Origin: a virus
DNA: 12,283 nt
Direction: 5' to 3' (one strand)
Virus genome (UHGV): UHGV-0153572
Part shown: in pieces, positions 502 to 12,283 of the stretch
How the letters are laid out: each line of letters begins with the position of its first letter
How positions within the stretch are numbered: position 1 is the stretch's first letter
The notes under the pieces: generated by a model
Seen by the model: only the letters and a program-made list of their open reading frames with translations
Databases searched by the model: none
What the model was told of the DNA's origin: nothing
Made by a program: the position numbers and the translations under genes

Positions 502-550
502 CGCATTCGTAATGCGAAGGTCGTAGGTTCGACTCCTATTATCGGCACCA
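502..550 (+). tRNA. Orphan 3' fragment (49 nt) of a tRNA-Thr(CGU) gene (thrW-type): anticodon arm, variable loop, T-arm, 3' acceptor strand and CCA; putative prophage att core, not a complete tRNA
   Basis: Sequence CGCATTCGTAATGCGAAGGTCGTAGGTTCGACTCCTATTATCGGCACCA matches, from memory, the 3' two-thirds of enterobacterial tRNA-Thr(CGU), including the GGTTCGACTCC T-arm and terminal CCA. The 27 nt upstream (475-501) do not match the 5' acceptor/D-arm, so no cloverleaf can form. Confidence 0.8.
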
Positions 551-564
551 TTTAAATCAATAAG

Positions 565-1728
565 TTACACATCATTAGTACCTTCCTTATTTTTTGACTG
601 GGACAAATTTGGGACCGATGGGTTCAGGATCGAGTCTATTTGCCGTGCGTGTTCGGTAAGGTGATTAGGTGCAAGGTGAGCATATCGACGAACCATTTCG
701 ATAGACTCCCACCCTCCCATTTCCTGTAACACTGACAACGGGACTCCGGCTTGAACCAGCCAACTTGCCCAGGTGTGTCTCAAGTCGTGAAATCTGAAAT
801 CATCAATACCAGCCCGTCTCAGCGCCGCTTTCCAGGCTGTGTTTGCGTCATACCGCATCTTCCTTACTGTTGGCGCTTTCGTTCCGTCTGGTTTGGTACA
901 GCTTTCCTTGTACACAAATACCCAACGGTGATGATTCCCGATTTGTTTTTTCAATACGCGACATGCAGTATCATTCAGCGCAACGCCAATTGCGCGGTTT
1001 GATTTACTCTCTTCCGGGTTTATCCATGCCACCCGGCGCTGCATATCTATTTGTTGCCATTCAAGGTTGATGATGTTCGAGCGTCTTAAACCTGTTGCCA
1101 GTGCAAATTCAACAACAGACTTTAATGGCTCCGGACATTCATCAATCAGCCTTTGTGCTTCATGGGGCTCCAGCCAGCGGATCCGTTTATTCTTTGGTTG
1201 AGGCACTTTAATAATTGGTGCCTTATCCAGCATTTTCCATTCACGCTCTGCGGCTCTTAGTAGGGCCTTTATAAATGAAAGATGCGTAGCCTTCGTTGCA
1301 ACGGACGCTGGTTTTGGCGTGTATTCTGGAACAGGTTTCCCTTTTTTTCTGCATGCTTCTGCCCTGAGTTTCCAGTTTTCCTCATGACGCCGGTTCGTCA
1401 TTTTCTGCATTGCTGAATAAATTTTTGATTCAGTAATGTCTCTTAGTTGCATTCCTGCGAAATGTTGAAGCCAGAATCCGATCCGGCTTTTGTCATCGTC
1501 CAGTGATTTTTTATGTGCTTTCTCTTCAAGCCACCTGACACACGCTTCCTCGAACGTTATATCAGGTATTTCACCAAGTTTGCTGACCCGCCATGCTTCA
1601 GCCTTTAGCTTGTCATGGAGTTCTGTCGCCTGCCTTTTGTCCTTTGTTCCAAGAGACTGTTTAAATCTTTTACCGTTCGGCAATGTGAAACTGGCGTACC
1701 ATATTTCACCTCTGCGGAAGAGTGACAT
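565..1728 (-). CDS. int: Site-specific tyrosine integrase, phage P22 Int-type (387 aa)
   Basis: 387-aa ORF with ATG at 1728..1726 preceded by an AGGAAAG/GAGG Shine-Dalgarno. C-terminal catalytic signature of tyrosine recombinases ([39 protein letters not shown], with R...HxxR...Y). Length and N-terminus ([24 protein letters not shown]) resemble P22 Int as remembered. Its 3' end lies 15 bp from the tRNA-Thr att core. Confidence 0.93.
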
Positions 1729-1955
1729 TTTCTTTCCTCTGTTATGCCATCACCCGCGCTCACCTGGACAGTATGCAGCGGAGACTGAAGAGCCGCAATG
1801 CAGGCTTGTCGTGTTGTGAGGTAAGGAGATTTATTCTTAGTGGGATCTTTGCGTGTTGCCTGAAGACGCCCTGTGCGTATCCAGTTAATGGCAGTCGGTC
1901 TGGATATCTTGAGAAAATGACAGGCCTCATCGAGTGTGAGGCTGTATGGCTCCAT
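1605..1955 (-). CDS. xis: Excisionase (Xis), helix-turn-helix excisionase family, 116 aa
   Basis: ATG at 1955..1953 with GAGGTG Shine-Dalgarno 6 nt upstream. N-terminus [33 protein letters not shown] fits the excisionase/AlpA-type HTH pattern. It overlaps the int start by ~120 nt, as in P22 xis-int. The ORF-track entry 1605..2039 is trimmed to the internal Met with an RBS. Confidence 0.75.
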
Positions 1956-2260
1956 TATTTCACCTCTTGCTGTGACATTGTTGAAAAATGGATACCAGCT
2001 CGTTGCTGCCAGACGATCCAACCGAGAGTCATATCCCATGCCATGTATTCGTTATCGCCGTTTTTTGCTCTCCGACGATCTACTAAGTCACCGAAACGCT
2101 TTTCCATGAATAATTCATAAGCTTCGCGTTCATCTGGTTCTACTTCCAGCGATAGGAGTGCGATTTCATAAGCACGGCGCTCAATATCGTCTCGCACGTC
2201 AAGGCTGCTGATACGCTCTTTAATTTCTTTAATCAGTTCTTTGTCGGTAAAAGTGATCAT
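1955..2260 (-). CDS. Hypothetical phage accessory protein (101 aa), acidic, no recognised domain
   Basis: ATG at 2260..2258. Its TAA stop (1957..1955) overlaps the xis ATG (TAATG), indicating translational coupling within the leftward operon. Sequence MITFTDKELIKEIKERISSLDVRDDIERRAYEIALL... Confidence 0.55.
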   Translation of the reverse strand: MITFTDKELIKEIKERISSLDVRDDIERRAYEIALLSLEVEPDEREAYELFMEKRFGDLVDRRRAKNGDNEYMAWDMTLGWIVWQQRAGIHFSTMSQQEVK

Positions 2261-2622
2261 TATGCTCCAGCCTCCGGTGCTTTTGGCATTATTGCCCAGT
2301 GAGTGATATTGACGTTTTCAAGGTCCCCGACCTGAAATGTCCACAGCCATTCTCCGGTTTCTTTTTGTCCCCAGGTGTACCAGAGAGAACGCCAGCCAAT
2401 TAGCCAGCCTTCTCCGTTAGCATCAAATAACAAAACACTTTCATTTGCTGGTGGCAGTTCAGCTGACACTGGTATTACTTTGTTTTCCTGTGCTGCACAT
2501 TTAGCTTCAAGCGCATCGAATTTACGCACCAGGTATTCAGCATCTGTTTCATTTACTTTCAGATCTCGCGGTACACATCTCCCACGAAGAAACCCTTCCA
2601 TTTCGAAAACATTCATGCGCAT
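2260..2622 (-). CDS. DUF551-like phage protein (118-120 aa)
   Basis: C-terminal Trp-rich block WLIGWRSLWYTWGQKETGEWLW...ITHWAIMPKAPE resembles the DUF551 signature (...THWMPLPEPP) common in lambdoid early-left regions. Candidate starts are ATG 2622 or ATG 2616; the latter overlaps the stop of the upstream HD gene (ATGA). Its stop overlaps the next gene's ATG (TAATG at 2258-2262). Confidence 0.6.
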   Translation of the reverse strand: MRMNVFEMEGFLRGRCVPRDLKVNETDAEYLVRKFDALEAKCAAQENKVIPVSAELPPANESVLLFDANGEGWLIGWRSLWYTWGQKETGEWLWTFQVGDLENVNITHWAIMPKAPEAGA

Positions 2623-3149
2623 TTGCGTAACTCCGATAACTCGTTAAAACGTTCCATAAACATCCCGTAGGCATGGCCCGGTGCCTGTGGAATCACTTTG
2701 AACATCTCTGTTGCCGGGATACCTTCCAGTACAGGCCAGAAAGAGCCATCATCAAGCCCGAGATCGCGGCGTTCGGTTGCCAGCATAATGAGATCGGCAT
2801 ATTTCACTGGCGTGCTCATAACAGGAGGTAACCCGTATTTCTCACGTATTACGGCGTCTATTTTTTCTTCCATCCGTTTATAGTCAGGAAGAAGTCGTTT
2901 CAGTGGTGCGGGGATGTCCTGGCAATATGCTTCTGTTGCATCATGCATTAAAGCTTCAAAAGCAAATTCCTGTGGCACCAGCTGGCTGCAAAGCACCGCA
3001 TGTTGGGCGACACTGTAGAAGTGTGAAAGATGTCCTGCAAAGCGACAGATATTTGAAAGGGAAACCGCGATATCGTTAATAACGATGTCGTCTTTATTTA
3101 TCCTGTCATAATAAAAATGCTTCCCGGAAAAAGTTTTAATAAATGACAT
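2613..3149 (-). CDS. HD-domain metal-dependent phosphohydrolase (178 aa from ATG 3149; the ORF extends to a GTG at 3176)
   Basis: H...HD motif context (VAQHAVLCSQ ... EALMHDATEAY) and later acidic residues typical of the HD phosphohydrolase superfamily. ATG 3149..3147 has a GGAGA Shine-Dalgarno 5 nt upstream; the longer ORF-track version starts at GTG 3176 without an obvious RBS. Confidence 0.7.
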   Translation of the reverse strand: MSFIKTFSGKHFYYDRINKDDIVINDIAVSLSNICRFAGHLSHFYSVAQHAVLCSQLVPQEFAFEALMHDATEAYCQDIPAPLKRLLPDYKRMEEKIDAVIREKYGLPPVMSTPVKYADLIMLATERRDLGLDDGSFWPVLEGIPATEMFKVIPQAPGHAYGMFMERFNELSELRKCA

Positions 3150-3273
3150 TTTGTTCTCCACGTATATGCGCTGCACCGCGCTGAATTCGGGTAAAAGGAA
3201 GCCCTCACCGTCCGGCGATTATTGAGTCAATTACATTTCCATAAATGCCCCCGTAGGGGCGGTTAGTTTCTCC

Positions 3274-3362
3274 ACAAAACAGAGAAGAACACCTGCGGTG
3301 GCAGCCGCCCGGATGGATTGGGTTATGAGCCCGTCGTCCGGTGATGCTCTTCTCTGTTTTGT
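3274..3362. repeat. 15-bp perfect inverted repeat (ACAAAACAGAGAAGA at 3274-3288; TCTTCTCTGTTTTGT at 3348-3362) with a 59-bp spacer, in the divergent intergenic region
   Basis: Direct reading: reverse complement of 3274-3288 equals 3348-3362 exactly. Lies between the leftward (int-proximal) and rightward operons. A GC-rich hairpin (GCCCC-CGTA-GGGGC, 3247-3260) lies just upstream. Confidence 0.6.
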
Positions 3363-3407
3363 AAAAAGGACGGTATCCGCCTGACGGCTAATCAGGCATA
3401 TCACCAG

Positions 3408-3611
3408 ATGGTGAAGCTGGGGATCGTCGAGCAGCGCGAACGATACAGCCGTACCGCGATTAACAACATCAAAAAATTCTGGTCGCTGACAGCGAAAGGC
3501 TGCATGTTCGGCAAGAACATCACCAGTCCTGCAAATCCGCGCGAGACGCAGCCGCATTTCTTCGAATCCCGATTCCCTGAGCTGTTAAAGCTGCTCGATA
3601 CCGTTCATTGA
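3408..3611 (+). CDS. Possible small hypothetical protein (67 aa); weak call
   Basis: ATG ORF ending 1 nt before the start of the next gene; amino-acid composition is more protein-like than the overlapping minus-strand 108-aa ORF. No strong RBS identified; could equally be non-coding regulatory sequence. Confidence 0.25.
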   Translation: MVKLGIVEQRERYSRTAINNIKKFWSLTAKGCMFGKNITSPANPRETQPHFFESRFPELLKLLDTVH

Positions 3612-3612
3612 G

Positions 3613-4608
3613 GTGACCGTGAGAGCACTACTGACCCCTGAAATAGCCCCGCGTATGGGGATCGTATTGTTCAGACCCGGTTCAGAGCTGATGCCCCTGT
3701 TTATGCAGGGGCGTGTCCTGCTGGAGCCTGAGCCGGAACGTTATTCATCTTTCGCCAGTGGTGCCGTTCCCGCGGCATCACAACCGCTGGCGGATGATCC
3801 TGCCGTTCGAGCCGTGTTCTGCAATGAGGCAGTGATCCGTCGTGCTGGTGGCGTGGAATGTCTTGAAAGCTGGTTACTTCGTGAAAAGGGCTGTCAGTGG
3901 CCTCATTCCGACTGGCACAGCGAGAACATGACCACAATGCGACACGCGCCGGGCGCGATCCGTCTGTGCTGGCACTGCGATAACCAGCTGCGCGATCAGT
4001 TCACGGAACGGCTGGAATCAATGGCAACGGATAACTGTGCCCGCTGGGTGTTGTCTGTTGTGCGTCGGGATCTCGGTTTTGATGACAGTCACGTTGTGAC
4101 AATGCCGGAACTGTGCTGGTGGCTGATTCGTAATGACCTGGCGGATGCCTTACCGGAAAGTGCAGCCCGTAAGGCACTGAGATTACCGAAGCCTGTTGTG
4201 CCGTCTGTCACCCGGGAAAGTGACCTTGTGCCTTCGGTTCCTGCCACCAGCATCATCCAGGATAAGGCGAAAAAGGTGCTGGCGCTGAAAGTGGATCCGG
4301 AGTCGCCGGAGTCTTTTATGTTACGCCCAAAACGTCGCCGCTGGGTTAATGAAAAGTACACGCGCTGGGTTAAGACACAGCCGTGTGCATGTTGTGGAAA
4401 GCCTGCTGATGATCCCCACCACCTGATAGGCCACGGTCAGGGTGGGATGGGTACAAAAGCGCATGACCTCTTTGTGTTGCCTTTGTGCAGAAAGCATCAC
4501 GACGAGCTGCATGCGGATACCGTGGCATTTGAAGAGAAGTATGGCTCCCAGCTGGAGCTGATATTTCGTTTTATCGATCGTGCGCTGGCAATAGGCGTAC
4601 TGGCGTAA
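3613..4608 (+). CDS. DUF968-like phage protein with C-terminal HNH/zinc-binding nuclease-like motif (~330 aa)
   Basis: C-terminal CACCGKPADDPHHLIGHGQGGMGTKAHDLFVLPLCRKHHDELH has Cys pairs and HH...H spacing like HNH-type modules. Overall architecture resembles the DUF968 (YdfU-type) proteins of lambdoid nin regions as remembered. Start is GTG 3613, or GTG 3619 with a GAGGTG Shine-Dalgarno. Confidence 0.7.
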   Translation: MTVRALLTPEIAPRMGIVLFRPGSELMPLFMQGRVLLEPEPERYSSFASGAVPAASQPLADDPAVRAVFCNEAVIRRAGGVECLESWLLREKGCQWPHSDWHSENMTTMRHAPGAIRLCWHCDNQLRDQFTERLESMATDNCARWVLSVVRRDLGFDDSHVVTMPELCWWLIRNDLADALPESAARKALRLPKPVVPSVTRESDLVPSVPATSIIQDKAKKVLALKVDPESPESFMLRPKRRRWVNEKYTRWVKTQPCACCGKPADDPHHLIGHGQGGMGTKAHDLFVLPLCRKHHDELHADTVAFEEKYGSQLELIFRFIDRALAIGVLA

Positions 4609-4621
4609 GTGGAGAACGAGC

Positions 4622-5350
4622 ATGAACCTTGAAGCTTTACCAAAATATTACTCCCCAAAATCTCCAAAATTGAGTGATGACGCACCGGCGACAGGCTCGG
4701 GTGGTTTAACAATTACAGATGTGATGGCTGCGCAGGGGATGGTGCAGTCGAAAGCACCGCTTGGGTTTGCCTTATTCCTGGCAAAAGTTGGTGTTCAGGA
4801 TCCTCAGTTTGCGATTGAAGGTCTGCTCAATTACGCGATGGCACTGGATAACCCGACATTGAACAAATTGAGTGAAGAAATCCGGTTACAGATCATCCCT
4901 TACCTTGTGAATTTTGCCTTTGCTGATTATTCCAGGTCTGCGGCAAGTAAGGCTCGCTGTGAGCATTGTGCTGGTACTGGATTTCATAATGTATTGCGCG
5001 AGGTGGTGAAACACTCCAGAAGCGGGGAATCTGTTATCAAGGAAGAGTGGGTGAAGGAACTATGTCAGCATTGTCATGGTAAGGGAGAAGTCAGCACAGC
5101 GTGCAGAGGGTGTAAGGGTAAAGGTATTGTCCTGGATGAAAAAAGGACCCGGCTTCATGGCACGCCTGTTTATAAGATTTGTGGGCGTTGCAATGGAAAC
5201 CGATTTAGCCGTTTACCAACCACACTGGCGCGGAATCATGTCCAGAAGCTGGTACCAGACCTGCCGAAGATCTGGGAAAAGTCACTTTCCGCCCGTCCAT
5301 CACGGCTTATGTGGTGGGAGATGACTGCTTTGACCAGCGCGATCGCCTGA
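4622..5350 (+). CDS. Phage antitermination protein Q-like protein with DnaJ-type zinc-finger repeats (242 aa); C-terminus possibly chimeric
   Basis: ATG 4622 with GGAGA Shine-Dalgarno. Four CxxCxGxG-type motifs (CEHCAGTG, CQHCHGKG, CRGCKGKG, CGRCNGNR; nt ~4958-5191). Resembles, from memory, the Q-type antiterminators of E. coli lambdoid prophages that sit next to a DUF968 gene. The last ~30 codons overlap, in another frame, DNA homologous to the DNA-circulation gene. Confidence 0.65.
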   Translation: MNLEALPKYYSPKSPKLSDDAPATGSGGLTITDVMAAQGMVQSKAPLGFALFLAKVGVQDPQFAIEGLLNYAMALDNPTLNKLSEEIRLQIIPYLVNFAFADYSRSAASKARCEHCAGTGFHNVLREVVKHSRSGESVIKEEWVKELCQHCHGKGEVSTACRGCKGKGIVLDEKRTRLHGTPVYKICGRCNGNRFSRLPTTLARNHVQKLVPDLPKIWEKSLSARPSRLMWWEMTALTSAIA

Positions 5351-6465
5351 TTGACGCGCTGAATAAACCCGGTCCCGGCACGCTTGTCCACCCGACATAC
5401 GGTGAGTTGAAAGTCTGTGTTGACGGGGAAGTTCGGGTCAGCACATCGAAGAGTGAAGGGCGTATTGTCCGCTTTGACCTGAAGTTTGTCGAAGCGGGAG
5501 ATCTCTCTTACCCCACATCAGGCGTGGCGACGGCGCAGACGCTGATGTCATCCTGTTCTGCACTGGATGACTGCATCAGTGACAGCTTCAGCGGTTTCAG
5601 TATCGATGGCGTGGCAGATTTTGTGCAGAACGACGTCGTCGGTAATGTCGGCACAATGCTTGGGTATGTTTCTGATGCGATGAAAGTGGTGGATTCTGCC
5701 GTATCGGATGCCGCCAGGCTGTTGCAGGGGGATATCTCGGTACTTCTTCCGCCGCCATCGTCAGGCAAAAATTTCGTTGAGCAGGTGCAGAAAATGTGGC
5801 GTACCGGGAAACGCCTTTATGGTAACGCCAGCGACCTGGTCACCATGATCAAAACGCTTTCCGGTGTCAGCCTTGGCAGCGATCTGCAACCGCGCGGCGT
5901 CTGGAAAACGGACAGTAAAACCACCGCCACGGCGACGCAGCAGCGTAACGTGGTTGCCAGCACCCTTCGTACGACCGCAATCAGCGAAGCGGCGTATGTC
6001 GTCACACGATTGCCTGCGCCCACAACTTCCGCGGTGATGCAGAATGCCACAGTGGGGCAGTCAACAACACCCGCGCAGAGCACCGGCTGGCCTTCTGTCA
6101 CGCATCCGGCACTGAACAATGCACCGGCGGTGAAAAACACGGTTGACCTGCCAACGTGGGAAGAACTGACCGACATTCGCGACACACTGAATACGGCAAT
6201 TGATAAGGAGTTGTCCCGTACAACCAGTGATGCGCTGTTTCTGGTGCTGCGCCGGGTGAAAGCAGATCTGAATGCGGATATCAACACGCGCCTTGAACAG
6301 TCTGCACGGATCATTCAGCGCACGCCGGATGAGGTTTTACCCGCGCTGGTGCTGGCGGCGACCTGGTTTGATAACGCGGCGCGTGACGCGGACATTATCC
6401 GGCGTAATGCCATTACGCATCCCGGCTTTGTGCCGGTGATCCCTCTGAAGGTGCCAGTGCAATGA
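5311..6465 (+). CDS. Mu-type DNA circulation protein (gpN family), N-terminally truncated; possible pseudogene
   Basis: Contains the family block AYVVGDDCFDQRDRLIDALNKPGPGTLVHPTYGELKV. The frame is open upstream only to 5209 (in-frame TAG at 5206-5208) and similarity begins around AEDLGK (~5263). The first possible start is GTG 5311 with no RBS, so ~45-60 N-terminal residues of a typical homologue are absent. Confidence 0.75.
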   Translation: MVGDDCFDQRDRLIDALNKPGPGTLVHPTYGELKVCVDGEVRVSTSKSEGRIVRFDLKFVEAGDLSYPTSGVATAQTLMSSCSALDDCISDSFSGFSIDGVADFVQNDVVGNVGTMLGYVSDAMKVVDSAVSDAARLLQGDISVLLPPPSSGKNFVEQVQKMWRTGKRLYGNASDLVTMIKTLSGVSLGSDLQPRGVWKTDSKTTATATQQRNVVASTLRTTAISEAAYVVTRLPAPTTSAVMQNATVGQSTTPAQSTGWPSVTHPALNNAPAVKNTVDLPTWEELTDIRDTLNTAIDKELSRTTSDALFLVLRRVKADLNADINTRLEQSARIIQRTPDEVLPALVLAATWFDNAARDADIIRRNAITHPGFVPVIPLKVPVQ

Positions 6466-7541
6466 ACGACAATGTCACGCTACGGGTAAATGGCCGGGAG
6501 TGGAATGGCTGGACATCGGTGCGCATCGGTGCCGGTATTGAACGGCTGGCGCGGGATTTCAGTGTGGAGATCACCCGCCAGTGGCCGGGAGATGAGGGTA
6601 TCACCACGCTTCAGCCGCGCATTAAAAACGGTTCAAAAGTGGAAGTGCTGATTGGTGATGAGCTGGTGATCACCGGCTGGGTGGAGGCGACGCCCGTTCG
6701 TTACGATGCCCGTTCGGTCAGCACCGGTATTGCCGGACGTAGTCTGACGGCTGACCTGATTGACTGTGCAGCCGAACCGACACAGTTTAACGGACGCTCG
6801 CTGGTGCAGATTGCGCAGGCGCTTGCTGCGCCTTTCGGCATTGAGGTGGTGAACAGCGGTGCGCCGTCGGGTGTTATTCCTGATGTTCAGCCTGATCACG
6901 GTGAAACGGTGATTGAGGTAATAAACAAAATACTCGGTCAGCAGCAGGCGCTGGCTTACGACGACCCGCACGGCAGGCTGGTGATTGGCGGTATTGGCTC
7001 AACGCGGGCACATACCGCGCTGGTACTTGGGGAAAACATCCTTTCCTGCGATACGGAGAAGAGTATCCGGGAGCGGTTTTCTGTTTACCAGGTGGCGGGG
7101 CAGCGTGCCGGAAACGACGATGATTTCGGTGAGGTCACCACCACCGCGCTGCGGGCCCGCACAGAGGACGCATTTATTGCCCGTTACCGTCCGATGTATA
7201 TCAGGCAGACAGGGCAGGCCACGGGGGCAGGCTGTATTGCGCGTGCTGACTTTGAAGCCCGACAACGGGCGGCGCGGACGGATGAAACCACCTATGTGGT
7301 GCAGGGCTGGCGACAGGGTAACGGTACGCTGTGGCAGCCCAACCAGCGGGTGATTGTCTTTGATCCGGTCTGTGGTTTCGACAATACCGAACTGCTTGTC
7401 TCGGAAGTCACGTTTACTCAGGACCAGAACGGCACCCTGACGGAAATCCGTGTCGGCCCGCCTGATGCTTATCTGCCTGAACCCGAAGCCCCCGGCGCGC
7501 GGAAAAAGAAAAAAGCCAGAGTACAGGAGGACCCGTTCTGA
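6462..7541 (+). CDS. Mu gpP-type tail/baseplate protein (phage late control D / baseplate hub family), 359 aa
   Basis: ATG 6462 overlaps the upstream stop (ATGA). Size, position directly after the DNA-circulation gene and sequence character fit the Mu P / P2 gpD family. Part of a tightly overlapping operon. Confidence 0.8.
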   Translation: MNDNVTLRVNGREWNGWTSVRIGAGIERLARDFSVEITRQWPGDEGITTLQPRIKNGSKVEVLIGDELVITGWVEATPVRYDARSVSTGIAGRSLTADLIDCAAEPTQFNGRSLVQIAQALAAPFGIEVVNSGAPSGVIPDVQPDHGETVIEVINKILGQQQALAYDDPHGRLVIGGIGSTRAHTALVLGENILSCDTEKSIRERFSVYQVAGQRAGNDDDFGEVTTTALRARTEDAFIARYRPMYIRQTGQATGAGCIARADFEARQRAARTDETTYVVQGWRQGNGTLWQPNQRVIVFDPVCGFDNTELLVSEVTFTQDQNGTLTEIRVGPPDAYLPEPEAPGARKKKKARVQEDPF

Positions 7542-8089
7542 TGAGGACGATTGAAGCCATGCAGCGACAACTTCTCGGCCTGATTGCGCGGGCAGTGGTG
7601 AAAAGCATCAGTGCCGCCACGAAATGTCAGACCGTGGATGTGTCCCTGATTGCCGGTGAACCCAAAGCCGGGGTTGAACATCTTGAACCCTACGGTTTTA
7701 CCGCAAGGGCAAACAGCGGCGCGGAAGCGGTGGTGTTGTTTCCGGATGGCGACCGTTCTCATGCGGTGGTTGTTACGGTGTCGGACCGGCGCTACCGCCT
7801 GAAAGGGTTGCAGACGGGTGAGGTGGCTGTCTATGACGATCAGGGGCAGTCTGTGACGCTGACCCGGGAGGGGATCGTGGTGGACGGTGCAGGTAAAACG
7901 ATCACGTTTCGCAATTCACCTAAAGCACGTTTTGAAATGGACCTGGAAGTGACAGGACAGGTGAAAGACCTGTGCGACTCCAGCGGCACTACCATGTCAG
8001 CGATGCGGCTTGCCTATAACGGGCATCGTCACAGAGAGAACGGTCAGGGCAGTAACACCGACAAACCGGATAAAGCGATGGAGGCATGA
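7541..8089 (+). CDS. Baseplate assembly protein V-type (Mu gp45-like spike protein), 182 aa
   Basis: ATG 7541 overlaps the upstream TGA (TGATG), with an AGGAGG Shine-Dalgarno. N-terminal region MRTIEAMQRQLLGLIARAVVKSI...GEPKAGVEHLEPYGFTARA is typical of the phage baseplate V family. Confidence 0.8.
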   Translation: MRTIEAMQRQLLGLIARAVVKSISAATKCQTVDVSLIAGEPKAGVEHLEPYGFTARANSGAEAVVLFPDGDRSHAVVVTVSDRRYRLKGLQTGEVAVYDDQGQSVTLTREGIVVDGAGKTITFRNSPKARFEMDLEVTGQVKDLCDSSGTTMSAMRLAYNGHRHRENGQGSNTDKPDKAMEA

Positions 8090-8514
8090 TGGAACTGTGG
8101 CTGACGGTGAACGGTAAACGCACCTGCGCCAGCGCACCGCTGGATCCGCTGACCCGCGCCGTGGTGATTTCCCTGTTTACCTGGCGGCGGGCGGAGCCTG
8201 ATGACAACGCCGACGTCCCGATGGGATGGTGGGGGGATACCTGGCCTGCGGTACAGAATGACCGTTACGGCTCCCGACTGTGGCTGCTTCAGCGCAGCAA
8301 ACTGACCAATCAGCTGGTGCAGACAGTAAGGGGGTATATCCGCGAATGCCTGCAATGGATGATTGATGACGGCGTGGTGTCCCGTATTGATCTGGATATC
8401 CGCCGCACCGGGATTAATGAGCTGGGTAACAGTATCACCCTCTGGCGTCGTGACGGACCGGTAATGATTTCTTTTGATGATCTGTGGAGTGCGATAACGC
8501 ATGGCGGACAGTGA
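8086..8514 (+). CDS. Phage GP46-family baseplate protein (Mu gp46 / gpW-like), 142 aa
   Basis: ATG 8086 overlaps the upstream stop, with a GGAGG Shine-Dalgarno. Small protein in the conserved position between the V-type and J-type baseplate genes. Confidence 0.8.
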   Translation: MMELWLTVNGKRTCASAPLDPLTRAVVISLFTWRRAEPDDNADVPMGWWGDTWPAVQNDRYGSRLWLLQRSKLTNQLVQTVRGYIRECLQWMIDDGVVSRIDLDIRRTGINELGNSITLWRRDGPVMISFDDLWSAITHGGQ

Positions 8515-9559
8515 ATTTCAGCGCCCGACGCTGGCAGAAAATATCAGTATGCTCCGTAACGATTTATTCGCCAGGCTGGACGTCAGCGACACGCTCCGGC
8601 GCATGGATGAAGACGTGCGGGCAAAGGTGTATGCGGCGGCGCTGCATACGGTTTACGGGTACATCGATTATCTGGCAATGAACATGCTGCCTGACCTGTG
8701 CGATGAGTCCTGGCTGGCGCGACATGCTGCGATGAAACGGTGTCCGCGCAAGGGGGCCACGGCTGCCAGCGGGTATATGCGTTGGGAAGGTGTCAGCGAT
8801 GGCCTGAAGGTGACCGCCGGGAGTGTTATTCAGCGCGATGACCTGGTTCAGTACACGGCAACTGCCGATGCAACCAGCTCCGGTGGTGTCCTGCGCGTGC
8901 CGATCGCCTGCTCAAGTGCAGGCGCGGTCGGTAACGCTGACGACGGTACGTCATTAATCCTGGTCACGCCGGTTAATGGTCTGCCGTCTTCCGGCGTGGC
9001 AGATACCCTTACAGGCGGATTTGATACTGAAGAGCTGGAAACGTGGCGCGCCCGCGTCATTGAGCGGTATTACTGGACGCCTCAGGGCGGGGCTGACGGG
9101 GACTATGTCGTCTGGGCTAAAGAAGTGCCCGGCATTACCCGCGCATGGACATACCGTCACTGGATGGGAACGGGAACTGTCGGTGTGATGATTGCCAGCA
9201 GTGACCTGATTAATCCCATTCCGGAAGAATCAACGGAAACGGCAGCAAGACAACATATCGGGCCACTGGCCCCGGTGGCAGGCTCTGATTTGTATGTATT
9301 CAGGCCGGTGGCACATACGGTGGATTTTCATATCCGCGTGACGCCGGACACACCGGAAATACGGGCTGCCATTACCGCGGAGTTGCGTTCGTTCCTGCTG
9401 CGTGATGGTTATCCGCAGGGAGAACTGAAGGTATCGCGTATCAGTGAGGCGATTTCCGGTGCGAACGGGGAATACAGCCATCAGTTGCTTGCACCGGTGG
9501 ACAATATCTCCATTGCGAAAAACGAACTGGCGGTACTGGGGACGATTTCATGGACGTGA
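8501..9559 (+). CDS. Baseplate J-like protein (Mu gp47 family), 352 aa
   Basis: ATG 8501, overlapping the upstream gene by 14 nt. Size and synteny (after gp46-like, before the DUF2313 gene) fit the Baseplate_J family. Confidence 0.8.
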
Positions 9560-10134
9560 CAAACGATGATTACATCCGCCTGTTATCGGCACTGTTGCCG
9601 CCCGGTCCGGCGTGGTCAGCCAGCGATCCGGCGATTGCCGGTGCGGCACCGTCATTAACCCGTGTTCATCAGCGTGCGGATGCCCTGATGCGGGAGCTGG
9701 ATCCGCGCACCACCACTGAACTGATAAACCGCTGGGAGCGTCTGTGCGGTCTGCCGGATGAATGTATTCCGGCGGGAACGCAGACCCTTCGCCAGCGTCA
9801 GCAACGGCTGGATGCGAAGGTTAACCTGGCGGGCGGCATCAACGAGGATTTTTATCTTGCACAGCTTGCTGCCCTGGGCAGACCAGATGCCACCATCACG
9901 CGATACGACAAAAGCACGTTCACCTGCTCATCGGCCTGTACTGACGCGGTGAATGCGCCGGAATGGCGGTATTACTGGCAGGTCAACATGCCAGCCGCCA
10001 CCAACACCACCTGGATGACATGTGGCGATCCCTGTGATTCCGCACTGCGTATCTGGGGTGACACCGTTGTCGAGTGTGTGCTTAACAAACTCTGCCCGTC
10101 GCATACCTACGTAATTTTTAAATATCCGGAGTAA
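9550..10134 (+). CDS. DUF2313 tail protein (Mu gp48 / P2 gpI-like; YmfQ-type), 194 aa
   Basis: ATG 9550, overlapping the upstream gene by 10 nt. N-terminus [22 protein letters not shown]... and the Cys-rich C-terminus resemble, from memory, the YmfQ/DUF2313 proteins encoded immediately upstream of tail-fibre genes. Confidence 0.8.
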
Positions 10135-10137
10135 TCC

Positions 10138-10902
10138 ATGCATCGTATAGACACGAAAACCGCGCAGAAGGATAAGTTCGGCGCGGGTAAGAACGGTTTT
10201 ACCCGTGGTAACCCCCAGACCGGCACGCCTGCCACCGATCTGGATGATGACTACTTTGACATGTTGCAGGAAGAGCTTTGTGGCGTGGTGGAGGCATCCG
10301 GTGCCAGCCTGGAGAAGGGGCGGCATGACCAGCTGCTTACCGCGCTTCGTGCGCTGCTGTTAAGCCGCAAGAATCCGTTTGGCGATATCAAATCGGATGG
10401 CACCGTGAAAACGGCTCTCGAAAACCTTGGTTTGGGAGAAGGTGCTCCAGCTATTGGCGTTCCGTTCTTCTGGCCGTCCGCTGCAATGCCAAATACTGTA
10501 ATCGACAGCTGGTCCGGTATGGTGTTTTTGAAGTTCAACGGCGCGAAATTCTCTGCCACTGATTACCCTGTGCTGGCGAAAGTGTTTCCTTCGCTGGTAT
10601 TACCTGAAGCCCGCGGTGATTTCATTCGTATCTGGGATAATGGTCGTGGTGTAGATAGTGGACGTGGATTACTTAGTACGCAGTCTGACCTGATGAAACA
10701 ATTTACTTTGCAATACTACGGTCCTTCTGCTGGTACTGGAACAAGAACGGTTTTCGCCCTCCAGAGTAATGCGAACGGCATATATACGAGTGGTATTAGT
10801 CAGAATGATGGTAGTGGCACCGCTGCGGCTTTTAATGTACCAGGCGGCACCGAAACACGCCCACGTAACATTGCATTCAACTTTTTAGTAAGGGCTAAAT
10901 AA
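10138..10902 (+). CDS. Tail fibre protein (S-type): conserved N-terminal baseplate-attachment region plus variable C-terminal receptor-binding region, 254 aa
   Basis: ATG 10138 with GGAG Shine-Dalgarno. N-terminus [55 protein letters not shown] is the conserved tail-fibre constant region. Codons ~93-101 ([10 protein letters not shown]) are encoded by a Hin/Gin-type crossover-like site. The AT-richer downstream part is the variable region. Confidence 0.85.
10415..10440. other. Candidate Hin/Gin/Cin/Pin-family DNA-invertase crossover site inside the tail-fibre gene
   Basis: CTCTCGAAAACC-TT-GGTTTGGGAGAA: 26 bp with near-symmetric 12-bp arms around a central dinucleotide. It matches the remembered hixL (TTCTTGAAAACCAAGGTTTTTGATAA) at 19/26 positions and shares the AAACC/GGTTT core with gix. 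It sits at the constant/variable junction of the fibre gene, as gix does in Mu S. Confidence 0.55.
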
Positions 10903-11495
10903 TGAAACCTGTTTTTGATAAAAATGGGCTGGCTACAGTACCGGGTGATATGCGTTGTTTTTATTATGATGCAGTAACGTCTGAATATACTGGCTGGTCT
11001 GATGAATATATTAATACTGGTGTAAGTATGCCCGCCTGTTCCACTGGTATTGACCCGGGCGAATACATTCCGGGGAAAGTGGCAGTATTTACGGGTAAGG
11101 GATGGAGCCATGAAGAAGACCACCGCAATGAGACTGCTTACTCAATCGAAAATGGCGCAGCTGTTACAGTGGATTATATCGGTGCCATCAAAGACGGTTA
11201 TGTCACGCTTTCACCGTTAACGCCATACGATAAATGGGATGGTGAGAAATGGGTGACAGATACTGAGGCACAGCATAGTGCCTCAGTAGACGCGGCAGAA
11301 GCACAGCGCCAGTCGCTGATTGATGCTGCAATGGCTTCCATCAGTCTGATTCAACTGAAATTGCAGGCCGGGCGGAAGCTGACGCAGGCAGAAACAACCC
11401 GACTTAACGCCGTGCTGGATTACATTGACGCGGTGACGGCAACAGATACCAGCACCGCGCCGGATATCATCTGGCCTGAACAGCCGGAGGCGTAG
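10902..11495 (+). CDS. Tail fibre assembly chaperone (Tfa / Mu U-type), 197 aa
   Basis: ATG 10902 overlaps the tail-fibre stop (TAATG). N-terminus [36 protein letters not shown] and C-terminal DTSTAPDIIWPEQPEA are characteristic of the Tfa family. Confidence 0.9.
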   Translation: MKPVFDKNGLATVPGDMRCFYYDAVTSEYTGWSDEYINTGVSMPACSTGIDPGEYIPGKVAVFTGKGWSHEEDHRNETAYSIENGAAVTVDYIGAIKDGYVTLSPLTPYDKWDGEKWVTDTEAQHSASVDAAEAQRQSLIDAAMASISLIQLKLQAGRKLTQAETTRLNAVLDYIDAVTATDTSTAPDIIWPEQPEA

Positions 11496-11907
11496 GCCAT
11501 TCAATATCTGGAGCACTGGAAGTATCGACCAGTTCCAGTGCGTCAAGATAATCCAGCCATAAATTATATTGCGCCAGTTCCTCACCTTTCAGACGACCAA
11601 TAGCAGCCTTTCCTGGCCACTGCTTACTGTTAATATATTCATTAACTCGATTTATGAGTGCCTGTTTTTTTCGTTCCGCTTCTGACAGTTGTTCTTCATG
11701 AGTTAGCGGCGGTACGTCATCCCATGCAGGATAGCCATCATCACCCGCAACTCTCACTTTCCCTGGAGGTGGGGACAGGTACTTAATAAATATATCCTCA
11801 TCAACTTCAACTCCATTATGAGGCCATAACCCAGACTTCTTATACTGACTTTCCAGAGTAAATGGGTAAAACATATTAGTTTTAGCATCGTAAAGATATT
11901 TACTCAT
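11467..11907 (-). CDS. Second tail fibre assembly chaperone (Tfa'-type), inverted orientation, 146 aa
   Basis: ATG 11907..11905 with AGGAAG Shine-Dalgarno 7 nt upstream. C-terminus ...LVDTSSAPDIEWPTPPAVQAR carries the Tfa family motif. Its 3' end overlaps the plus-strand tfa 3' end convergently by 29 nt. The ORF-track version (to 12006) is trimmed to the Met with an RBS. Confidence 0.8.
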   Translation of the reverse strand: MSKYLYDAKTNMFYPFTLESQYKKSGLWPHNGVEVDEDIFIKYLSPPPGKVRVAGDDGYPAWDDVPPLTHEEQLSEAERKKQALINRVNEYINSKQWPGKAAIGRLKGEELAQYNLWLDYLDALELVDTSSAPDIEWPTPPAVQAR

Positions 11908-11908
11908 T

Positions 11909-12283
11909 TTATCTTCCTGTGGCAAACCAGCGGCAACCAGCGACAGTTGGAACATTGAAGGATGGATTTCCTTTATCAAGAGATCCCAGGTTATCTGCCA
12001 TGACACTTGAGTTAGTCAATTGATAGAATTGCCATACTGACATTTTCCCTGGCACAGGAGCATGGTCATGTTCATTAATAGAAATGACGCCTGTCGGAAA
12101 TGGGATAGGAAAATTAATCAAAACTTCATTTATTGTGGCCCCAGTTAGCCCCCATTGTTCAATATAACCATCCGGGCTTCGCCTCCATCCCGTCGTTGTA
12201 TCTCCCCAAAAGCCAAGAACTCGGACATTGGCAGCAGCACCAGCATGTGGATCAGTGCTACATCCATTTTGGTATCTCTTGCA
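11909..12283 (-). CDS. Partial CDS (C-terminal 124 codons; 5' end beyond the window): alternative tail-fibre C-terminal (receptor-binding) region
   Basis: Minus-strand frame is open from the window end to the TAA at 11911..11909, 1 nt before the tfa' start. Translation ...ANVRVLGFWGDTTTGWRRSPDGYIEQWGLTGATINEVLINFPIPFPTGVISINEHDHAPVPGK... contains the PDGxIxQWG-type motif of tail-fibre distal domains and a diverged copy of the LGxGxG junction. Confidence 0.7.
   Translation of the reverse strand, partial: CKRYQNGCSTDPHAGAAANVRVLGFWGDTTTGWRRSPDGYIEQWGLTGATINEVLINFPIPFPTGVISINEHDHAPVPGKMSVWQFYQLTNSSVMADNLGSLDKGNPSFNVPTVAGCRWFATGR

Follow-up and report, generated by a model that had tools for sequence, protein, structure and literature searches.

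The 26 bp at positions 10415-10440 of the 12,283-nucleotide stretch analysed here (the window; virus genome UHGV-0153572) are a known site, the one at which the e14-type P tail-fibre segment of E. coli is inverted, and they very probably form the fibre-side crossover of such a segment here. The element that carries them is a defective E. coli prophage whose baseplate module is SfV/e14-like. The system is already known as the e14 Pin/P segment of the Hin/Gin/Cin/Pin family, with identical copies in RefSeq in which pinE is annotated. The present locus is this e14 Pin/P system with a different fibre/chaperone cassette pair on a different mosaic prophage remnant. The window is a complete metagenome contig (ENA ERZ773516, NODE_1684_length_12283) with nothing to its right, and the following features were assigned around the site:

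9550-10134, plus strand: YmfQ/Mu gp48-like baseplate wedge gene (Pfam Phage_Mu_Gp48; labelled ymfQ in relatives and in K-12)
10138-10902, plus strand: tail-fibre gene in the present orientation, 254 aa, consisting of constant residues 1-101 (10138-10440) and variable end A (10441-10902)
10415-10440, no strand: 26-bp serine-invertase crossover site (e14 pix-type, fibre-gene side), sequence CTCTCGAAAACC TT GGTTTGGGAGAA
10429-12206, no strand: invertible P-type segment, portion inside the window; the whole segment measures about 1855 bp
10902-11495, plus strand: tfa-A, the chaperone paired with variable end A (Pfam Caudo_TAP, E = 6e-28)
11467-11907, minus strand: tfa-B, convergent tail-fibre assembly chaperone (Pfam Caudo_TAP, E = 8e-35; labelled tail fiber assembly protein in relatives)
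11909-12206, minus strand: variable fibre end B, C-terminal ~99 codons from the translation, Gp53-like_C in relatives; 5' part lost at the contig end
12207-12283, no strand: assembly chimera of 77 nt, part of an unrelated Poly_export/SLBB (Wza-like) gene

The preliminary description of this DNA, made from the letters alone, had reported a 26-bp site with an AAACC-NN-GGTTT core at 10415-10440, and the sequence reads as stated. Two imperfect, inverted 12-bp half-sites (symmetry 9/12) surround the 2-bp core TT at 10427-10428, as expected of a crossover site in the Hin/Gin/Cin/Pin family, and the site lies in frame within the 254-aa fibre gene, where it codes for ALENLGLGE (residues 93-101). The exact core AAACCNNGGTTT is present as a single copy in the window and occurred at least once in only 2 of 200 dinucleotide-preserving shuffles. 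When one mismatch was allowed, the core motif was present in 67/200 shuffles, which is not significant by itself. Taken alone, the consensus match is moderate evidence for a crossover site. That the site resembles the invertase consensus by chance and does not serve recombination might be argued from the expectation of 0.44 per window for the 12-nt core with one mismatch, but the rarity of the exact core in the shuffles, the identity of all 26 bases to a proven site and natural inversion breakpoints inside the site speak against it; its probability is negligible, and the inversion comparisons described below already refute it. Classical site definitions were checked directly against the K-12 and Mu sequences. 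In the retrieved e14 region of K-12, stfP/ycfK holds the same 26 bases (26/26; L012 12779-12804). The inverted repeats of the 1797-bp e14 P segment have been published as 5'-TTGGTTTGGGAGAAGG-3' and its complement (PMC12529663), and TTGGTTTGGGAGAAGG corresponds to window 10427-10442.

The site had also been placed exactly at the boundary between the constant and the variable part of the fibre gene, and four independent comparisons break there. SfV-, SfI-, SfII- and SfIV-like phages show 96-97.5 % identity up to window ~10441 and none beyond; K-12 e14 DNA aligns to window 8772-10442 at 98 % and ends there; the K-12 StfP protein is ~98 % identical in the constant part, with identity ending after ENLGLGEGA; and along the 254-aa ORF the PHROG matches change from N-terminal fibre families (residues 1 to ~103) to tail-collar families (~88/101 to 254), with the split at about residue 101-104. 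No Pfam family was assigned to the 254-aa fibre, whereas PHROGs identified it as a tail fibre. A tail-fibre protein of ~248 aa is named 'integrase' by RefSeq/PGAP in several E. coli genomes (e.g. L001 6639-7385), and this label on the crossover-containing fibre gene is evidently a misannotation.

An arrangement shared with e14, SfV and Mu places the baseplate wedge gene directly 5' of the fibre gene, and on the other side the ATG of tfa-A overlaps the fibre stop codon. The variable end, tfa, convergent tfa' and opposite-strand fibre end described earlier for the downstream part are all present, but the last 77 bases (12207-12283) are foreign and not fibre, a chimera that had been overlooked. 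The tfa-B gene would be expressed only after inversion. Full-length fibre end B in the longer assembly L003 (11772-12188) matches Gp53-like_C, and phage records searched by tblastn with the truncated end B of the window gave no match. An 18-nt inverted repeat (89 % complementary) was observed in the 3' parts of the convergent tfa genes (window ~11414-11431 and ~11540-11557; L003 11277-11294 and 11403-11420), which probably derives from the common C-terminal Caudo_TAP coding sequence rather than representing a terminator.

Colinearity between the window and all relatives breaks off at 12206/12207. Bases 12207-12283 are 100 % identical to L011 1159-1235, i.e. the gut MAG contig URSS01000042.1 (labelled uncultured Lachnobacterium), which carries a Poly_export/SLBB gene beside a Wzz/GNVR/P-loop tyrosine-kinase-like gene and to which the rest of the window has no match. 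Neither E. coli genomes nor phages gave a match to the last 76-84 nt of the window, whether searched in near or in distant mode. An origin of the contig end by fold-back or from an internal repeat was excluded, with no match elsewhere in the window, and a longer alternative fibre N-terminus was rejected by the exact 77-nt match to the Poly_export gene. The fibre reading frame passes through the chimera without a stop, by chance. The length of 77 nt would fit a k = 77 de Bruijn vertex joined by a spurious edge. Were the chimera absent, the partner site would be expected to start ~65 nt on, at about window 12272; the contig ends in foreign sequence ~65 nt short of this expected partner, and both partner site and invertase are absent from the window.

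As the window comprises the whole contig, the sequence to the right was inspected on other copies of the element. An exact-protein look-up of the 254-aa fibre led to the longer assemblies L003, L004, L006 and L007, of which L003 shares 99.97 % identity with the window across 11,866 nt. All four show the order fibre, tfa, tfa' (minus strand), Gp53-like_C fibre end (minus strand) and a 184-aa Resolvase+HTH_7 protein (plus strand). The expectation of an invertase gene and an inverted partner site just to the right, outside the window, was therefore borne out in these near-identical copies. The partner site is located at L003 12135-12160 in inverted orientation, with the sequence TTCTCCCAAACC AA CGTTTATGAAAA (written through: TTCTCCCAAACCAACGTTTATGAAAA). 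Its core AA on the plus strand is TT on the minus strand, i.e. an identical core dinucleotide in inverted orientation. Inner half-site and core are identical to those of the window site, with 21/26 identical positions overall, and the pair was the top-ranked repeat in an inverted-repeat search of L003, L004 and L001. A 26-mer search of the window and the loci with up to three mismatches found only the left site, because the partner has five differences, which are confined to the outer half-site and its junction. The recombinase starts 55 bp past the partner (L003, L004, L006, L007 and E. coli E4), comprises 184 aa and has a Resolvase (E = 4e-51) as well as an HTH_7 domain. Its identity to K-12 PinE amounts to 95 %, and it has an N-terminal YVRVSTNDQ motif. 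In K-12, an identical partner site and an identical 55-bp spacer are found between stfE and pinE, and pinE is also the annotation of the recombinase gene in complete RefSeq genomes.

We were interested whether the opposite orientation is found in nature. Region 9700-12500 of L003 was therefore inverted in silico by reversing 10292-12146 between the two core dinucleotides, and the result was identical to E. coli E4 (NZ_CP104516.1) and TUM10008 (NZ_CP135658.1), with 100.0 % over 2801/2801 bases in a single piece. Comparison of the window itself with E4 led to a same-strand block at 505-10441 (99.95 %) and an opposite-strand block at 10422-12207 (99.89 %), which overlap in a 20-bp repeat at the site, with the inversion breakpoint within 10422-10441. 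The two differ only by the orientation of 10422-12207. The non-inverted configuration was observed in the window, in L003-L010 and in other complete genomes at about 95-96 % identity. Related chicken isolates differ, GPEC1209 being flipped and GPEC1035 and GPEC1210 unflipped. Each orientation yields an in-frame fusion with its own chaperone, namely the 254-aa fibre with tfa-A in the window and a 221-aa fibre with tfa-B when flipped. The latter consists of constant residues 1-101 followed by AAKRDVGNGQ…WFATGR; in the E4 record it is an annotated CDS (L013 12302-12967) with tfa-B after it. The segment thus occurs in both orientations with junctions at the site, in a comparison between isolates and not within one population; of the two orientations proposed earlier, the flipped one was found in E4/TUM10008 and the other in the window/L003. 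Inversion of the e14 P segment is documented experimentally (PMC4272514; PMC12529663), and at the identical K-12 e14 sites it was followed within a population by PCR, qPCR and whole-genome sequencing (PMC4272514; PMC12529663). Judging from the near-identical copies, the switch would also be active in this genome and in the sampled cells.

These comparisons also bear on the reading that the segment is frozen by loss or inactivation of partner or invertase, so that the site is a historical boundary kept by the coding constraint on ALENLGLGE. Such a reading would account for a window without partner site and pin, for the identical site retained by SfV without invertase, and for the relative L015 with a shortened 'DNA invertase' CDS of 315 nt. 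However, all six longer assemblies with an identical fibre gene possess the partner site and an intact recombinase of 184 aa, and in the window the reading frames of convergent tfa-B and of fibre end B are intact. In addition, each orientation was found in nature at 100 % identity, and trans-acting E. coli invertases such as PinQ flip the e14 segment (PMC12529663). A frozen segment is therefore very unlikely.

For the preferred reading as a functional e14-type switch, the following sequence of events may be proposed. A Pin-family serine DNA invertase would be encoded just past the segment, its gene being off this contig and present in the near-identical copies. Pin dimers would bind to the 26-bp site and to the inverted partner ~1.85 kb away, and the resulting complexes would assemble with a Fis-bound enhancer, an element that is usually found in the 5' part of the invertase gene. 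The catalytic serine would then make staggered cuts in all four strands at the 2-bp core, which reads TT here and, on the same strand, AA in the partner, with formation of phosphoserine links, and one pair of half-sites would rotate by 180 degrees prior to religation. Inversion would be permitted because the core (TT/AA) is identical in inverted orientation. Promoter and first 101 fibre codons would remain fixed, with exchange of the C-terminal receptor-binding end and the cognate Tfa gene: the window orientation would lead to a collar-type fibre of 254 aa plus tfa-A, the opposite one to a Gp53-like fibre of 221 aa plus tfa-B. Cleavage chemistry and Fis/enhancer dependence are presumed here from family membership; the Hin mechanism, the DNA-invertase subclass and the requirement for the Fis-bound enhancer have been described (PMC3798978).

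Among the known systems, the e14 P segment with PinE (stfP-tfaP/tfaE-stfE-pinE) shares the identical fibre-side 26-bp site and, in the near-identical copies, the identical partner and site-to-pin spacer. Recombinase (95 %) and constant fibre (~98 %) are similar as well, ymfQ is found upstream, the gene order is the same, and both host elements are defective prophages. The variable cassettes, in contrast, differ, as past the site only tfa-related DNA matches (91 %), and the segment is ~1855 bp here compared with 1797 bp in e14. The backbone also differs from that of e14 by CPS-53-like yfdRST on the left, more retained baseplate genes, another integration site and the lack of mcrA and lit. The Mu G segment with Gin (S/U versus S'/U') follows the same plan with gp47, gp48, constant part of the fibre, site, Sv-U, U'-Sv', site and invertase. 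The invertible-segment architecture of e14 P and Mu G that had been claimed for this DNA agrees with the e14 gene order and with the Mu record. According to the latter, the Mu gix sites are TTATCCAAAACC TC GGTTTACAGGAA and its inverted copy, 18/26 identical to the window site, with the AAACC-NN-GGTTT centre common to both and the annotated G-segment boundaries falling on the central dinucleotide. Mu, however, is a viable phage in which the switch truly changes the host range, its G segment is ~3 kb with longer fibres, its core is TC instead of TT, and Gin would be a more distant paralogue. The P1 C segment (Cin) also switches fibre ends, whereas in the Salmonella Hin/H segment a promoter is flipped rather than gene ends. 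The tail module of SfV (and SfI, SfII, SfIV) resembles the present one in baseplate genes and constant fibre (96-97.5 % to 10441) and in the identical 26-bp site, but has a fixed fibre without partner site, second cassette or invertase, and gtr O-antigen conversion genes follow. In orf21 of the functional phage SfV (L016 4416-4441), the identical 26-bp site was observed as a lone module boundary, which suggests that invertible versions gave rise to SfV-like fibres or that exchange occurs between the two. As SfV has the site without the switch, the 26-bp site alone is not diagnostic of a switch.

The element in E. coli E4 is bounded by a 64-nt direct repeat (window 505-568; L013 22883-22946; L003 19321-19384) of 95-97 % identity. 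The repeat overlaps the integrase 3' end, and its second copy is found ~19-20 kb to the right beside a truncated LysR-type gene. The two copies are probably attL and attR of a defective prophage. A tRNA scan of the window for an attachment site found none. A DNA-circularisation gene (5311-6465) is truncated at its N-terminus, with a DNA_circ_N match limited to profile positions 55-88, and is fused, with overlap, to a Q-type antiterminator ORF (4622-5350). Both genes are annotated as pseudogenes in E4 (RefSeq). This fusion marks a large internal deletion by which the genes for lysis, head and tail shaft were removed. Genes for terminase, capsid, sheath, tube and tape measure were not found in the element (longer assemblies and E4), where baseplate genes of SfV/Mu-like type, the fibre and the switch are all that is left of the structural genes. 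Homologues of yfdT/yfdS/yfdR, genes of the K-12 prophage CPS-53/KpLE1, were observed at window 1955-3176. Two prophage lineages are combined in the mosaic remnant, with CPS-53-like genes on the left and an SfV/e14-like baseplate module on the right. Immediately to the right of pin (L003 12830-18882; L013 16392-22423), genes for a LEM-3-like GIY-YIG nuclease, a Dcm-type cytosine methyltransferase, an EcoRII-like endonuclease, DUF6650 and AbiTii were observed, a defence-gene cargo cluster at the prophage end, with an IS3 insertion within this cluster in E4.

With head, sheath, tube and lysis genes lost, there is no virion whose host range the switch could still set. From the preliminary description as a host-range switch the invertible fibre segment therefore remains, but virion host-range switching by this defective prophage is doubtful and vestigial at best. 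The switch may either be a relic that still flips, as in e14, or serve the host in a secondary role. For the latter, the same inversion mechanism might constitute a host-retained, recombinase-controlled anti-phage device in which a fibre chimera masks a surface receptor, as for e14 StfE2 and phage T2. A 2025 study reported that e14 P inversion, mainly by PinQ in trans, leads to a chimeric Stf protein blocking T2 adsorption (PMC12529663). This block, the intact ORFs of baseplate, fibre, chaperone and switch in an element from which no virions are possible, and the defence genes after pin in the relatives (LEM-3-like GIY-YIG, Dcm plus EcoRII-like, AbiTii) would be in line with such a role. The StfE2 result is nevertheless not transferable, since the cassettes differ from K-12 and the fibre identity stops at the site, and the protective K-12 protein starts on the stfE side, where no start is evident here. 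An anti-phage role is thus unlikely, and a T2-type blocking function of this locus would be a low-probability possibility. That non-K-12 fibre chimeras might be kept by the host as Pin-controlled, phase-variable surface or receptor-masking proteins excluding particular phages appears rather unlikely as well. If true, such host use would extend the single case of e14 StfE2 and T2 to an interchangeable cassette family beside a defence island.

Therefore, from the identity with the e14 site, the partner site and recombinase in near-identical copies and the occurrence of both orientations, the locus is best described as an e14-type Pin/P switch, and the current understanding of these systems is unchallenged by it. 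Invertible segments and cassettes common to several prophages break short-read assemblies, as exemplified by the 77-nt chimeric end observed here. The main value of the finding is the correct annotation of 10415-10440 as the left-hand crossover of a Pin-type invertible tail-fibre segment. Such a segment is widespread among E. coli prophages, the fibre/switch region having matches in about 2800-3000 of 5426 complete genomes.
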